From the NCBI GenBank assembly GCA_951406725.2, contig OX597816.1, positions 136,834,001 to 136,898,000 of the forward strand: a stretch of 64,000 nucleotides of DNA, read 5' to 3'. A program made the position numbers and the translations under genes. Shown one piece after another: positions 2,131-60,688 of this stretch. The notes under the pieces are model-generated. The model was given only the letters and a program-made list of their open reading frames with translations, ran no database searches and had not been told where the DNA came from. How positions within the stretch are numbered: the stretch's first letter is position 1; the number at the start of each line of letters is the position of its first letter. The stretch comes from Octopus vulgaris (lineage: Eukaryota).

Positions 2131-3027
2131 TATGTTTATTTTTAGAGTATTATATTACTCAGAGGCGACTCCAGGTCATCAGCGTCACTTGGGCTCACCA
2201 CAGATTTCGTCACTCAAGCTCATCACAGATTTCATATAAGACACATGTCTATTTGAAGAATTCCATGTTTTTCCGTTTTATTTCTAGCCCCAAATGGCTT
2301 ATTTTTCATATCTAGCACTATGTCTTTCTCCATTTCGAAGTTAAGGGTAAAAATAAAGCAACCCTGCAAAACACAACTGATGTTTACACACAGACGCACA
2401 AAATAGCAGCAATCAAATAATGACAGCAGAGTGCACAACAAACATCAGTGATCTGACTGTCACCTGTAGTCTTGACAAGAGATACCTGTTAGTCTTTTAC
2501 ACCTACCTGGCTTGTTCATATTAGCCCGAGTTGCTGGATAATTTTACGTTCCTTTAAGAATATTGTAGAGCGGAAACTTTTTATAGACTGGAATTTAAAT
2601 ACTAATCTCTAGAGAAATTTATTGCTTCAAGAAAACATCGAATTTGAGTTATTGTTAATTTTTATAATTGTAGATAACAACTCGGGCTGTAACTTCTGAA
2701 TCCATGTCAGGCGCGTGTGAACGATGTCAAGAGAACGTCTGCTATGAATGATATTTTTTGGCACAGAACACCTTTAAGATGACCGCCAGACGCTGAACAA
2801 AAATAAATGAACTGTGATCAGGCTCAATAAAAGGAACCCGAATTATTGGCTGAAATTATATACTTCAAATCAGAGTTAGCGCAGAAAGTCAATCAGCTTG
2901 CAAATACATGTTCACTTTACTAAATTTATACTCGGCTACACCTGAACAGCCCGAGTGCAGGAGTCACCACTGATATTACTCATTTTTAGAGTATCATATT
3001 ATTATTATTATTATTATTATTATTATC

Positions 3028-19738: not shown

Positions 19739-22079
19739 TCTGGGACGTAGTCGATCCACCTGTGCATACCTTCCTTCTTGTGACACTTGTGAAGACCTGC
19801 TGAGGCAAGTGAAAATCAATCAAAATAGATGAACATCAATGGAATTTGTATCTTTGTGGTACCAGTGCCTGTGGCACACAAGAAAACCATCCGAACGTGG
19901 CCGTAGCTAGTACCGCATCGACTCGCTTCCGTGCTGTGGGAACATGGTGGCACATAAAAACACCATCCGAAGACCCGGCAAGACTAGTCAGGTCATAACC
20001 CGTGGGCCCTACCTGGGACGTAGTCAGTCCACCTGTACATACCTTCCTTCTTGTGACACTTGTGAAGACCTGTTGAGGCAAGTGAAAATCAAAACAAATC
20101 AAAATAGATGAACATCAATGGAATTTGTATCTTTGTGGTACCAGTGCCGGTGGCACACAAGAATCCATCCGAACGTGGCCGTACTCAGTACCGCATCACT
20201 GGCCATCGTGCTGTGGGCACATAACAAACACCATCCAGTCGTGGCCGTTCGCCATCCTCATCTAGCACCTGTGTCGGTGGCACATAAAAAGTAGTCAGTA
20301 CCGCTTGTGGTACCAGTGCCGGTGGCACACAAGAATCCATCCGAACATGGCTGTAGTCAGTACCGCATCACTGGCCATCGTGCTGTGGGCACATAACAAA
20401 CACCATCCGGTCGTGGCCGTTCGCCAGCCTCATCTAGCACCTGTGTCGGTGGCACATAAAAACACCATCCGAAGACCCGGCAAGACTAGTCAGGCCATAA
20501 ACCATGGCCCCTACCTGGGACGTAGTCAGTCCACCTGTGCATACCTTCCTCCTTGTGATACTTGTGAAGGCCTGTTGAGGCAAGTGAAAATCAAAATCAA
20601 AATCAAAATCAAATCAAAACAAATCAAAATAGATGAACATCAATGGAATTTGTATCTTTGTGGTACCAGTGCCGGTGGCACACAAGAGAAAACCATCCGA
20701 AAGTGGCCGTAGCCAGTACCGCATCGACTGGCCTCCGTGCTGTGGGCACATGACAAACACCATCCGATCGTGGCCGTTCGCCAGCCTCATCTAGCACCTG
20801 TGTCGGTGGCACATAAAAACACCATCCGAAGACCCGGCAAGACTAGTCAGGCCATAACCCATGGCCCCTACCTGGGACGTAGTCAGTCCACCTGTGCATT
20901 CCTTCCTTCTTGTGACACTTGTAAAGACCTGTTGAGGCAAGTGAAAATCAAAATCAAAACAAATCAAAATAGATGAACATCAATGGAATCTGTATCTTTG
21001 TGGTACCAGTGCCGGTGGCACACAAGAGAACCATCCAAACGTGGCCGTAGCCAGTTCCGCATCGACCGGCCTCCGTGCTGTGGGCACGTAACAAACACCA
21101 TCCGATCATGGCCGTTCGCCAGCCTCATCTGGCACCTGTGTCGGTGGCACATAAAAATACCTTCCGAAGACCCGGCAAGACTAGTCAGTCCACCTGTGCA
21201 TACCTTCCTTCTTGTGACACTTGTGAAGACCGGTTGAGGCAAGTGAAAATCAAATCAAATCAAATCAAAATAGACAAAATAGATGAACATCAATGGAATT
21301 TGTATCTTGTGGTACCAGTGCCTGTGGCACACAAGAAATCCATCAGTGCTGTAGTCAGTGCGGTGGGCACATGACAAACACCATCCGATCGTGGCCGTTC
21401 GCCAGCCTCATCTAGCACCTGTGTCGGTGGCACATAAAAACACCATCCGAAGACCCGGCAAGACTAGTCAGGCCATAACCCATGGCCCCTACCTGGGACG
21501 TAGTCAGTCCACCTGCGCATACCTTCCTTCTTGTGACACTTGTGAAGACCTGTTGAGGCAAGTGAAAATCAAAACAAATCAAAATAGATGAACATCAATG
21601 GAATTTGTATCTTTGTGGTACCAGTGCCGGTGGCACGTGGCACACAAGAAAACCATCCGAATGTGGCCGTAGCCAGTACCGCATCGACTGGCCTCCGTGC
21701 TGTGGGCACATAACAAGCACCATCCGATCGTGGCCGTTTGCCAGCCTCATCTGGCACCTGTGTCGGTGGCACATAAAAACACCATCCGAGCGTGGCCGTC
21801 TGCCAACCTCGTCTGGCACCTGTGTCGGTGGCACATAAAAAACACCATCCGAGCGTGGCCGTTTGCCAGCCTCGTCTGGCACCTGTGTCGGTGGCACATA
21901 AAATCACCCACTACACTCTCGGAGTGGTTGGCGTTAGGAAGGGCATCCAGCTGTAGAAACACTGCCAGATCTGACTGGACTGGTGCAGCTTTTGGGCTCC
22001 CCAGACCCCAGTTGAACCGTCCAACCCATGCTAGCATGGAAAGCGGACGTTAAATGATGATGATGATGATGATGATGAT
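19739..22079 (+). repeat. Complex tandem array (about 6 units of about 280-525 bp) derived from an RTE 3' UTR, ending in an RTE-type 3' terminus with (GAT)n tail
   Basis: aaaatagatgaacatcaatggaat occurs at 19822, 20101, 20626, 20966, 21276 and 21581. Units share gaagaccc.gcaag...ccataacc...catacctt...aagacctgttgaggcaagtgaaa with the RTE 3' UTR at 58950-59080 (-). Confidence 0.9.
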
Positions 22080-22356
22080 ATATATGTATATATGTATATA
22101 ATTATATATATATATATACATATATGTACAATTTAAATATAGGATAAAATCTTTATAAGGATTTATCAAGTAGTTAGCATGAAAAACCTCATAAATTAAT
22201 AAATTTTTCCCTATAAATATATTTATTTATATTAAGGGCATTACTATACATAAATGCCTCATGCTAGGAGGGACTCTTAAAGTCAAAATTACTATAATAA
22301 CCACATTGTACCGAATGCGAGGGAATGCAACTCTCGAAGTGAGCCTCCTAAAAGCA

Positions 22357-22431
22357 GACTCAGCTGCATATCATATGATTTCGTAATTAGTGCACAAAAT
22401 GCACTTTTCACTCGTCAGTGCAAGCATAGTC
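22357..22431 (-). ncRNA. Type I hammerhead ribozyme with canonical core
   Basis: Minus strand reads GACU-AU-GC-U-UGCA CUGACGA GUGA-AA-AGUGCA-UUUUG-UGCACU-AA-UUAC GAA AUCAUAUGAU A UGCA-GC-UG-AGUC. All core nucleotides, three stems and an AUA cleavage triplet are present. Confidence 0.85.
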
Positions 22432-22484
22432 AAGACATAAAAAAATAAACAAAAATCAACAATGTGGTTATTATAGTAGTTTTG

Positions 22485-22654
22485 ACATGAACAAAGAAAA
22501 AACACGAGGACGTGGAATAAGTATAGTGTTATTGGATACTCAGGAAAGGAAAGAAAGAAGGGAGATTTCATGTTTCAAGCAGAGTTCTTCGTCAGAAATA
22601 TAGAAAAGAGAAAAAGTCCAAAGAAGAGAAGACAGAAAGTAAATCGCCAACAAT

Positions 22655-22706
<52 letters not shown>

Positions 22707-22905
22707 GTGTGTGTGAGACCACATGTGTATCATTGGTGATTTTCTTTCTCCGTCTTCCCTTCCTTGGACCTTTCCTTTTTCTGTTTGTGATGAAGAGCTC
22801 TGCTCGAAACGTTAAATCCTCCTTCTTTCTTTCCTTTCCTGAGTGTCCAATAACACTATACTTGTTCCATGTCCTCGCATTGTTATGTTATCTCTTTGTT
22901 CATGT
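22485..22905. mobile_element. Inverted pair of Penelope-like terminal repeats (22485-22659 / 22724-22905) around a (CA)n(TA)n(TG)n centre, each with a decayed minimal hammerhead
   Basis: The arms share aagtatagtgttattgga.actcaggaaaggaaagaaagaagg. Motifs are CUGACGAAGAACUCUGCUUGAAACAU (-, 22565-22599) and GUGAUGAAGAGCUCUGCUCGAAACGUU (+, 22784-22816). Confidence 0.75.
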
Positions 22906-22953
22906 TTGGATTTACTATATATATATATATATATACATATATATATACGTAAA

Positions 22954-23175
22954 CAATTGCAGCGTGGAAGGTGTTTGTAAGCCATTTAAGAAACACACAA
23001 AAGCCGTTCGATTCACTTCAACATTTAAGTTTAATTTGTCAAAATATTTTCGTCACTTTAAGACCGCGACCTGTTCACTGACAAAAATCCGTGCTGCATC
23101 TGAAATGTTGAAGTGAATCGAACGGCTTTTGTGTGTTTCTTAAATGGCTTACAAACACCTTCCACACTGCAATTG
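22954..23175. repeat. 73-bp inverted repeat (22954-23026 / 23103-23175, one mismatch) with a 76-nt loop
   Basis: caattgcagcgtggaagg...cacttcaacattt versus aaatgttgaagtg...ccttccacactgcaattg. Confidence 0.95.
23035..23085 (-). ncRNA. Minimal hammerhead ribozyme, G3-C8 core variant
   Basis: Minus strand reads UUUGUCA GUGAACA G GUCGC-GGUCUUAAA-GUGAC GAA AAUAUU U UGACAAA: 7-bp stem I, 5-bp stem II and palindromic stem III. Confidence 0.7.
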
Positions 23176-23341
23176 CTTTCGTTTCAGCACACGATCTCAG
23201 ATCAAATCACTTGCTATGCAAGTACATCTCCGTATATATACATATATATATGTATATATATATATATACCGGAGTAAACACATAAATGTGAAACAAGGTG
23301 GAAATAGAGTACTCAAATACCAGTGGTAGAGTACACATATA

Positions 23342-23661: not shown

Positions 23662-23712
<51 letters not shown>

Positions 23713-24103
23713 TAAAATGCAGCAAACTGGCAGAATTGTCAGCACACTGGATGAAATGCTTAGCAGTATTTCACCTGTTGCTATGTTCTGAGTTCAAATT
23801 CTGCTGAGGTCGACTTTGCCTTTCATCCTTTTGGAAACAATAAATTAAGGACCAGTGAAACACTGGGGTTGATGAATTCATTTAGTCCTTGCCAAAAGCT
23901 TTTGAAAAATCAAGGTATATTACATCCACATTTGAATTGTTGAGTAACTGCCTCAACACCCAGTCATAATGTTGTAAGAGCTGGGTCAGACAGCTCCTAC
24001 CTGGTTGAAAGCCAAGTTATTTTCTTCAAAGAATGCGATTAGTTTCTCTCTTACTATCCGTTACATGACTTTGCTGATGTATGAAGTCAGAGAGATACGC
24101 CTT

Positions 24104-24147
<44 letters not shown>

Positions 24148-24533
24148 CGTATCTCTCTGACTTCATACATCAGCAAAGTCATGTAACGGATAGTAAGAGA
24201 GAAACTAATCGCATTCTTTGAAGAAAATAACTTGGCTTTCAACCAGGTAGGAGCTGTCTGACCCAGCTTTTACAACATTATGACTGGGTGTTGAGGCAGT
24301 TACTCAACAATTCAAATGTGGATGTAATATACCTTGATTTTTCAAAAGCTTTGGCAAGGACTAAATGAATTCATCAACCCCAGTGTTTCACTGGTCCTTA
24401 ATTTATTGTTTCCAAAAGGATGAAAGGCAAAGTCGACCTCAGCAGAATTTGAACTCAGAACATAGCAACAGGTGAAATACTGCTAAGCATTTCATCCAGT
24501 GTGCTGACAATTCTGCCAGTTTGCTGCATTTTA

Positions 24534-24578
<45 letters not shown>

Positions 24579-58502: not shown

Positions 58503-60688
58503 ATCATCATCATCATTGTTTAATGCCTTCTTTCCATGCTAGCATGGGTTGGACGATTTGACTGAGGAGTGGCAAACCAGATGGCTGCACCAGGCTACAA
58601 TCTGATCTGGCAGAGTTTCTACAGCTGGATGCCCTTCCTAATGCCGACCAGTCTGAGAGTGTAGTGGGTGCTTTTACTGGCAATGGCCAATCTCAAATGG
58701 TGTTTTTTACATGCCACCTGCATAAGAGCCAGTCCACTGGCACTGGCATCGACCTCATTCGAATGTTTTTTCACGTGTCACCAGCATAAGTGCCAGTAAG
58801 GTGACGCTCGTAACGATCATGCTCGAATCGTGCTTTTTATGTGCCACTGGCATGGAAGCCAGTTAGCTACTCTGGCAACGATCATGCTCGGATGGTGCTC
58901 TTAGCGCTCCTCTAGCATGGACGCCAGTCATCAAATTTGATTTCGATTTCACTTGCCTCAACAGGTCTTTGCAAGCAGAGTTTAGTGTCCAATGAAGGAA
59001 AGGTATGAATAAGTGGGCTGGTTACACCCCTGGCATATGCCATAAGGTTATGGTCTCACTTGGCTTGCAGGGTCTTCTCAAGTACAGCATATTTCCAGAG
59101 GCCTCGGTCACTAGTCATTGCCTTGGTGAGGCCTAACGTTCGAAGGTCATGCTTTACCACCTCATCCCAGGACTTCCTGGGTCTACCTCTTCCACAGGTT
59201 CCCTCAAGCGCTAGGGTGTGGCACTTTTTCACACAGCTATTCTCATCCATTCTCACCACATGACCATGCCAGCACAGTCGTTTCTCTTGCACACCACATC
59301 TAATGCTTCTTTGGTCCAACTTTTCTCTCAAGGTACTTACACTCTGTCGAGTATGCACATTGACATTACACATTCATTGGAGCATACTGGCTTCATTCCT
59401 TGCGGGCTTACACATGTCCTCAGCAGTCACAGCCCATGTTTCACTGCCATGTAGCATGGCTGTTCGTACACATGCATCATACAGTCTGCCTTTTACTTTG
59501 AGTGAGAGGCCTTTTGTCACCAGCAAAGGTAAGAGCTCTCTGAACTTTGCCCAGGCTATTATTCTAGCAGCTACACTTTCAGTGCACCCTTCCCCGCTAC
59601 TGACTTGGTCACCTAGGTAACGGAAGCTATCAACTACTTCTAGTTTTTCTCCCTGGAATGTGGCGGAAGTTGTTCTCTGCACATTTTCAGTGTTTATTGC
59701 TCCTGAGCATCTTCCACATACAAAAACTATCTTCCCAGTTAGCATTCCTTTGATATTGCCGCACCTCTTATGTGTCCATAGCTTACACTGGGTACATCTT
59801 ATAGAGTTTCTACCTATGCCTTTTCTACAGATTGAGCAGGGCCATCTACCTGAAAGGATTTGTAGTTTGCCTGCCTTCCTACTTATTAGAACTTTGGTTT
59901 TAGCTAGGTTGATTCCTAGGCCCTTCGATTCTAATACTTGTTTCCACACCTGAAACTTCTCCTCTAGTTCTGTCAGTGACTCAGCAATTAGAGCAAGGTC
60001 GTCAGCATAGAGGAATTCCCAGGGGCATCCTGTCTTGAATTCCTCTGTTATTGCCTGGAAGACTATGATAAATAGGAGGGGGCTGAGGACTGAACCTTGG
60101 TGGACACCAACTTCTACCCGGAATTCTTCACTATACTTGTTGCCAATTCTCACCTTACTGACAGCGTCCATGTACATAGCTTGCACAGCTCTCACTAACC
60201 ATTAATCTATCCCTAGTTTCCTCATTGACCACCAGATAAGGGATCGGGGGACCTTATCAAAGGCTTTCTCCTTGTCAACAAAAGCCAGGTTCAGAGGTTT
60301 ATCTTTGGCTAGGTATTTCTCCTAAGGCGGCGAGCTGGCAGAATCGTTAGCACATCGGGCGAAATGCTTAGCGGTATTTCGTCTGCAGTTACATTCTGAG
60401 TTCAAATTCCGCCAAGGTCGACTTTGCCTTTCATCCTTTCGGGGTCGATTAAATAAGTACCAGTTATGCACTGGGGTCGATGTAATCGACTTAATACCTA
60501 TGTCTGTCCTTGTTTGTCCCCTCTATGTTTGGCCCCTTGTGGGTATTAAAGAAATAGGTATTTCTCCTGCAGCTGTCTTACCAGAAATATAGCATCAGTG
60601 GTGCTTTCCCCTGGCATGAACCCAAACTGCATCTCATCTAAACTGACTCACTCCCTAATTAGTTGGGCTATGACCCTCTCCGTGACCT
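58503..60688 (-). mobile_element. 5'-truncated RTE-clade LINE (RT, PHD-like finger, 3' UTR, (GAT)n tail), interrupted by a SINE
   Basis: ORF 59374..60195 has VGVHQGSVLSPLLF, LYADDL and LEVVDSFRYLG. ORF 59056..59373 has the RTE C-terminus (RL.W.GHV.RM, RGRPRK.W). Premature stops are present. Confidence 0.95.
60324..60554 (+). mobile_element. Young family B SINE inserted into the RTE with a 14-bp TSD
   Basis: TAGGTATTTCTCCT occurs at 60310-60323 and 60555-60568; CpGs in the SINE are intact. Confidence 0.95.

Follow-up and report, generated by a model that had tools for sequence, protein, structure and literature searches.

Four truncated Penelope-like insertions beside TA runs in the Octopus vulgaris genome and a hammerhead family with a swapped G3:C8 core

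We analysed a window of 64,000 nucleotides of the Octopus vulgaris genome (GenBank assembly GCA_951406725.2, contig OX597816.1, positions 136,834,001 to 136,898,000 of the forward strand), part of which carries copies of three repeat families, here called A, B and C, together with TA runs and four motifs that resemble hammerhead ribozymes (Table 1). An initial annotation had described four hammerheads of three unrelated families, each tied to an inverted repeat. The four motifs are indeed present and the three families are mutually unrelated, but only the A and C motifs are intact, and both B motifs are damaged, unlike their family: in the left one stem III is no longer palindromic and stem II is weakened, and in the right one G3 faces G8, which is a mismatch. 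The three inverted-repeat pairs were also confirmed, with 27 of 28 matches for 22282-22309/22459-22486, 150 of 185 aligned columns identical for 22485-22659/22724-22905, and 72 of 73 matches for 22954-23026/23103-23175 (a second measurement of this last pair gives 83 nt at 95%). These repeats do not delimit the modules as had been proposed, since A extends to 22128 and the inverted copy of C to about 23233. We infer a deletion between the inverted remnant of A and the neighbouring B copy.

Other repeats lie around this cluster. A GC-richer tandem array, which we take to be SINE-like, occupies 20133-22080 with periods of 172, 357 and 63, ends in (ATG)n just before family A and is also found in other loci (e.g. 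L058). A near-perfect palindrome at 23695-24560, with arms of 229 nt (99%) plus 163 nt (97%) around a central (TA)n run at 24123, is flanked by (ATT)n and (AAT)n and looks like an inverted duplication of local DNA that includes another repeat. Broken RT-like frames of non-LTR retrotransposons, recognised by eye from the translations, are found on the minus strand at 114-1594 and 59377-60201.

Table 1. Repeat copies, hammerhead motifs and simple repeats of the cluster (positions are those of the window).
Feature	Position	Strand	Description
(TA)n run	22078-22127		adjoins family A on its 3' side
Family A copy	22128-22458	-	5'-truncated; ends at the long 3' end with a tail of ~100 nt; piece of a ~485-nt non-coding tandem unit
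Family A hammerhead	22357-22431	-	C3 (22418) in a canonical core; internal loop in stem II; stem III a 10-nt palindrome; AUA triplet; cut predicted after 22369 from hammerhead numbering
Remnant of inverted 5' family A copy	22459-22486	+	28 bp; overlaps the B2 copy by 2 nt where the two join
Family B copy, subfamily B2	22485-22655	-	without the last ~12 nt; hammerhead remnant at 22565-22599, stem III palindrome broken
(CA)n(TA)n(TG)n microsatellite	22656-22714		between the two B copies
Family B copy, subfamily B1	22715-22915	+	3' end of a Neptune-like PLE
B1 hammerhead	22784-22816	+	C3 changed to G, G8 kept; likely dead
(TA)n run	22916-22947		common to the B1 and C 3' ends, which lie tail to tail
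Family C direct copy	22947-23102	-	5'-truncated 3' end of an RT + GIY-YIG PLE; ends at the short 3' end
Family C minimal hammerhead	23035-23085	-	stem I of 7 bp, stem II of 5 bp, stem III palindromic; G3 (23078), C8 (23073); one additional G following A9; UUU triplet; cut predicted after 23042
Inverted 5' copy of family C	23103-23233	+	carries a tail of ~60 nt (23176-23233) that the direct copy does not have
3' end of a fifth repeat family	23268-23335	-	inside TA runs; 4 other loci, two of them (L084, L010) with a hammerhead-like stretch upstream

The 175-bp pair had been read as one inverted repeat, and this reading does not hold: it consists of two independent insertions of family B, set head to head and facing away from one microsatellite. 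The two arms are 86% alike in aligned columns, and all 7 of 7 diagnostic columns split them, the right arm belonging to subfamily B1 and the left arm to B2, so that the identity between arms that a single event would give is not seen. The diagnostic columns come from 29 B1 and 7 B2 copies, the latter having been picked by their likeness to the left arm (7 of 13 examined). Copies of B end at one site, and an adjacent inversion was found in 0 of 29. Subfamily B2 (L266-L279) has G at position 17 (GUG) where other B-type copies have U, C or A, and ribozyme activity may thus differ among B subfamilies.

The initial annotation had also proposed that the elements have no RT or GIY-YIG reading frame, and walking 5' along longer copies contradicted this for both B and C. 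Longer B copies pass through CA-rich sequence and, at locus L182, into a broken RT frame and a GIY-YIG-like frame with a long zinc-finger linker upstream of the B hammerhead end, so the copies in the window are truncated 3' ends of a coding Penelope-like element (PLE). This single broken copy, whose B-type end is 76% identical to the window copy, is the sole locus that links B to reading frames; its RT frame matches RVT_1 with an E value of 1.5e-5, under the cut-off, and the GIY-YIG-like frame, ~1.1 kb upstream of the B-type end, was judged by motif, with no Pfam match.

In family C, the same walk leads through a TACA-rich stretch, which by eye closes shortly before stem I with a branch-point and acceptor-like sequence, and then into GIY-YIG and RT frames. 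A search with the C endonuclease gave 150 scored matches, many of them stop-free, and the hammerhead motif of C lies at most 1.5 kb downstream in 26 of the 30 top endonuclease loci and in 8 of the 10 long loci that were fetched. At locus L310 (3471-6545, minus strand) we found an open frame of 1025 codons with RT (YVDD) followed by GIY-YIG at 915-1005 (Pfam, 25.4 bits, above the cut-off), the first ~26 codons of which derive from the inverted arm, the true start being missing. The insertion at this locus is 4 kb long and has the same inverted layout as the C module of the window. All 7 of the 7 copies compared with it share 98.3-99.4% identity along as much as 1.9 kb, and we conclude that the C module of the window is what remains, in very short form, of a normal insertion of a PLE that is coding and young. 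Among named proteins, the closest relative of family C carries an Octopus vulgaris label (54% identity), in line with the cephalopod origin guessed in the initial annotation, and no solved structure matched the C protein by sequence. Between RT motifs A and B', the C protein has 129 residues and the B protein 57, with a median of 129 in the 38 of 67 homologs that could be measured, whereas PLEs with a C-terminal endonuclease (canonical PLEs) are described as being without this insertion (Craig 2021, PMC8557442). The C insertion is telomerase-like in length and may mark an undescribed PLE subclade.

The anatomy of C insertions was compared in 59 copies, 7 of which share flanks and were counted as one event. 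They have two 3' ends ~60 nt apart, and an inverted copy lies directly at the 5' side in 33 of 59, the tail being on one arm only in 32 of these 33; the other 26 have no inversion. Target duplications that are not simple sequence, 11-14 nt long, are present in 12 of 59, and no direct pLTR-ORF-pLTR copy, with a pseudo-LTR upstream of the frame, was seen among the 10 long C loci. These features match PLE insertions as characterised in Craig 2021, and in the window both the 28-bp and the 73-bp pair, which had been taken as parts of the elements, are ordinary PLE 5' inversions. At L098, L100, L114, L115, L117, L118 and L120, one inverted C insertion has been multiplied with its flanks inside a larger repeat. 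Older C subfamilies (L072, L077, L121-L150) carry an internal duplication ~400 nt upstream of the hammerhead, each copy of which ends in branch-point and acceptor-like sequence, and this suggests a retained intron as in Penelope.

Family A is different in kind. Its longer copies are partial tandems of a non-coding unit of 482-490 nt (~485; period 484 in L024), with two hammerhead cores 482 bp apart on the same strand and one type I hammerhead per unit, and neither a shared non-tandem upstream sequence nor a partner ORF was found in 59 loci (29 + 30) with 1.5-kb flanks. The suggestion that the cluster holds retrozyme-like non-coding families thus fits A, and fails for B and C, which have coding parents. 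Like C, A has two 3' end zones, here ~100 nt apart, which contain 21 of 29 ends, and 5' inversions were seen in 12 of 29 copies (a few of these rows are two copies of one insertion). In its hammerhead, N7 differs among copies and position 17 holds A or C; of 39 copies, 16 have G-C at 10.1-11.1 and 17 have U-U. U10.1-U11.1 is described as the best tolerated mismatch (Perreault 2011, PMC3088659), and judged by sequence the variation of A stays inside what hammerheads allow. Joints of A that go back in one public run are accounted for by genomic tandems, and that the runs are RNA is a guess. We infer that A is a non-LTR retrozyme moved by PLE proteins, and its tails and inversions provide insertion-anatomy evidence for the PLE-driven mobility of animal retrozymes that was proposed by Cervera 2020 (PMC7229834) and Li 2026 (10.64898/2026.07.22.740005). 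An A-related tandem unit of ~390 nt, 74% alike, occurs at L184:4317-4882; it seems to be without the first half of the hammerhead core, and keeps stem III with a different loop.

The modules are multicopy, as expected of such elements in the initial annotation, with 1,147 (A), 4,794 (B) and 1,716 (C) candidates at first look, 40 of which were scored for each family. A sample of 340 kb, drawn from fixed positions of the 2.8-Gb genome, contained 7 hits to B, 5 insertions of C and a single distant hit to A, a density that puts B and C at tens of thousands of copies; A is rarer, with 259 exact pattern matches. The proposed check with Rfam models gave 96 matches, most of them to microRNA models on hairpins and none to a hammerhead at E values of 5 or less, as expected for minimal motifs. 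A minimal-hammerhead descriptor with positions 3 and 8 left free did find such motifs: the fetched loci, 1.33 Mb in total and enriched for families A, B and C, contained 74, against 0 in three shuffles. Single-strand folding z-scores were modest (A -2.2, C -2.1, B -0.9 and +0.3). On co-folding of two copies, A formed a dimer through stem III and for C the dimeric hammerhead was not the best structure, minimum-energy folding being a poor test of a dimeric hammerhead.

Position 3 pairs with position 8 in the active hammerhead (Perreault 2011, PMC3088659). The literal core C3 U4 G5 A6 N7 G8 A9 / G12 A13 A14 A15.1 / U16.1 H17 is present in A, which has no extra base after A9 and a 10-nt palindrome, and in most copies of family B; it is absent from the right B copy of the window and from C. 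The core of family C reads G3 U4 G5 A6 A7 C8 A9, followed by an extra G, and is set among a 7-bp stem I, a 5-bp stem II, GAAA and a palindromic stem III; stems I and II, the extra base after A9 and the palindrome are shared with family B. This G3/C8 is the state of the family and not decay of the window copy. In 114 aligned C copies from three subfamilies, including the youngest, G3 is found in 113 and C8 in 108, with no C3, and the swapped core also occurs in 99%-identical copies with long intact frames. At 23073 and 23078, no alternative letter reached a share of at least 4% in 4 of 4 public runs with four organism labels; these runs are assembled contigs, used for letter identity at the two positions and silent on cleavage, circles and expression. 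Genome-wide, a pattern free at positions 3, 7 and 8 gave 3,409 exact matches, with C3:G8 in none of the first 100 matches listed, and a looser G3:C8 pattern gave 9,730 matches against 1,106 for the reversed control, that is, about 8,600 genomic motifs.

C3:G8 motifs in the same flanks do exist, with 14 matches against 1 in the control, all of them in other repeats and none in family C; a tblastn of the C protein against these 14 loci with 1.5-kb flanks gave no match in 14 of 14. Several have the same stem II, and one (L263) has the same stems I and II, so that the scaffold exists in both states. The Watson-Crick pair 3-8 is kept in 9 of 10 hand-picked rows, as G-C in C and as C-G in its relatives, a score reached by 13 of 500 shuffles, the rows being related to one another. 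Four divergent G3:C8 pattern hits were also fetched. One (L321) is an old C copy, 67% alike downstream, which keeps both G3 and C8, and two look like chance; the fourth (L320, about 2335-2370, minus strand) has a different, perfect 7-bp stem II and an imperfect stem I, and is possibly a second family with the swap.

Taken together, the cluster is a heap of PLE ends and is ordinary for this genome. As had been proposed, it is Penelope-related and tied to (TA)n: a TA run directly adjoins the 3' end in 25 of 29 copies of B, 36 of 59 of C and 18 of 29 of A, compared with 8.6% of random windows. We consider it very probable that the window holds four separate 5'-truncated insertions of three multicopy PLE families beside (TA)n, and not one type of fold-back element. 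Such insertions were likely made by target-primed reverse transcription, in which the endonuclease would nick AT-rich DNA, reverse transcription would start at one of two internal sites and so produce the tail, and would then stop early, often yielding an inverted second copy; Frangieh 2024 (PMC11167929) attributes the PLE tail to two internal RT start sites. Each insertion would sit in a TA run that stays a target, so that families could pile up, and A would borrow the PLE protein in trans. The genomic copies seen here are likely inert, and the ribozyme would matter in the source elements. With the swapped core of family C predicted to stay capable of cutting, this is the explanation we favour, with a probability of about 0.8.

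Two other readings of the cluster were weighed against it. The initial annotation saw in all three modules small non-coding fold-back retrozymes that own their inverted repeats, and could point to the shortness of most copies, to the TA runs on their flanks, to the non-coding, tandem nature of A and to the possibility that short C and B ends are re-mobilised alone. Against this stand ragged 5' ends, longer copies that reach RT and GIY-YIG frames, the 4-kb C insertion with the same inverted layout, window B arms that come from two subfamilies, and the lack of any adjacent inversion in the B copies and in 26 of 59 C copies, and we regard this reading as highly improbable. Hardly easier to believe is a cluster that serves as a special landing site or has been selected as a regulatory array, as opposed to a by-product of TA targeting. 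Uniform placement would seldom bring four copies together in about 1.1 kb (0.02-0.15 expected per genome, a crude estimate), the end of a fifth element lies close by, and of the 8 A/B/C neighbours counted near anchor copies, 4 lie immediately beside them (binomial P 0.004). However, both the adjacency of the families and the fifth element end would follow from shared TA targeting, PLEs being reported to insert into or beside earlier copies (review, PMC6765202); the tail-to-tail layout of C and B recurs at L074 and L054; within 1.5 kb of anchors, the density of hits to other families does not exceed the background; and two of the four motifs are broken, with no common orientation. We therefore retain the reading of independent truncated insertions.

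A different question is whether the family C motif still works. Judged from its sequence, the swapped core is likely still able to cut RNA, probably slowly and as a dimer or with the element's protein. A double mutant C3G/G8C partly restores the protein-assisted cleavage of a PLE hammerhead (Frangieh 2024, PMC11167929). The motif could instead be a dead relic, in which two mutations at positions 3 and 8 struck the source element and the family spread with no ribozyme and no cutting. PLE hammerheads cut poorly and are dispensable for insertion in the one in vitro system, in which no reads ended at the cut site (Frangieh 2024, PMC11167929), Naiad PLEs spread without canonical hammerheads (Craig 2021, PMC8557442), and the triplet of C is UUU, though natural PLE motifs often have U17 (PMC4209133). 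The three C subfamilies, moreover, vary in just 9 of 164 columns, and 5 of these fall in loop II, which served to define the groups, so that an unchanged core alone is no proof of selection; the swap is one event inherited by all copies, and copy number is thus not independent support. On the other hand, of the 13 core positions (Perreault 2011, PMC3088659) the changes are confined to the one tertiary Watson-Crick pair, whose two partners are still complementary, which two random core hits would achieve about once in 230 (1/78 x 1/3, by simple arithmetic); the youngest copies, too, show no damage to either stem, to the extra nucleotide or to the palindrome. We also considered that a reading frame might maintain G3:C8 and set this aside, as loop II differs by one base between subfamilies, a 1-nt length change that speaks against such a constraint. 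On balance, the relic seems unlikely, and a core that is predicted to remain functional is the reading we carry forward.

The swapped core bears on the wider question of whether PLE hammerheads have any importance in vivo. When young, near-intact elements keep a compensatory swap of the pair 3-8, which is catalytic, this is the sort of evidence from nature that would point to selection on the active fold. Descriptors that demand CUGANGA, as in the surveys of Craig 2021 and Perreault 2011, miss G3:C8 motifs, and some PLE lineages called hammerhead-free may therefore not be so. A natural G3-C8 form is not named in the available text of PMC4209133, PMC11167929, PMC8557442, PMC3088659, PMC7229834, PMC6765202, PMC8495972 or Li 2026, and no report of such a form or of octopus hammerheads appeared among the literature hits listed; a fixed G3:C8 core in a large, young, coding PLE family is apparently new in print, although its novelty is uncertain. 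Tentatively, and with somewhat less than even confidence in the whole, we hypothesise that family C is a recently active PLE with a working natural G3:C8 hammerhead not in print, kept through its subfamilies in thousands of copies that are invisible to CUGANGA searches, and with an RT that bears a fingers insertion of telomerase size despite its C-terminal endonuclease, and that family A is a retrozyme whose tails and inversions reveal mobilisation by PLE proteins.

Compared with known systems, the motifs resemble the minimal type I PLE hammerheads of Cervera and De la Pena 2014 (PMC4209133) in their short stem I, the extra nucleotide between A9 and 10.1, G10.1-C11.1 and the palindromic stem III, in occurring mostly as single truncated copies, with U17 triplets in several species, and in forming pairs on opposite strands 100-700 bp apart; supplement file 2 of that paper lists no cephalopod hammerheads. 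As in the endonuclease PLEs Neptune and Nematis (Craig et al. 2021, PMC8557442), RT is followed by GIY-YIG with a CX2-5CxxC linker, and 5' truncation, an adjacent inverted copy, a tail on one end and a bias to (TA)n are shared, the tails here being longer (C ~60 nt, A ~100 nt, compared with 30-40 bp). By eye, and with no placement in a tree, the short linker of C resembles the Nematis rows of their Fig. S2; the B endonuclease, also by eye, resembles the Neptune rows. Like the animal non-LTR retrozymes (Cervera and De la Pena 2020, PMC7229834; Li et al. 2026, bioRxiv 10.64898/2026.07.22.740005), family A consists of AT-rich tandem units that are non-coding and carry a single type I hammerhead each, and its genome also contains PLEs. 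Unlike those retrozymes, it forms 1-1.8 units with PLE-type tails and inversions and not long arrays, and is known here from DNA copies; B and C differ from retrozymes in that protein-coding parents were found. Natural core variants (Perreault et al. 2011, PMC3088659) offer a parallel in the covariation of the 3-8 pair and in U10.1-U11.1, found in one A subfamily, but the variants named there are U3 and A8, and the natural core covariation in PMC4209133 is likewise U3-A8, in contrast to the G3-C8 of family C. The closest match is the Poseidon PAc C3G/G8C mutant of Frangieh et al. 2024 (PMC11167929), which carries the same double change; it is engineered in PAc, whereas in family C it is natural, fixed and recently expanded.
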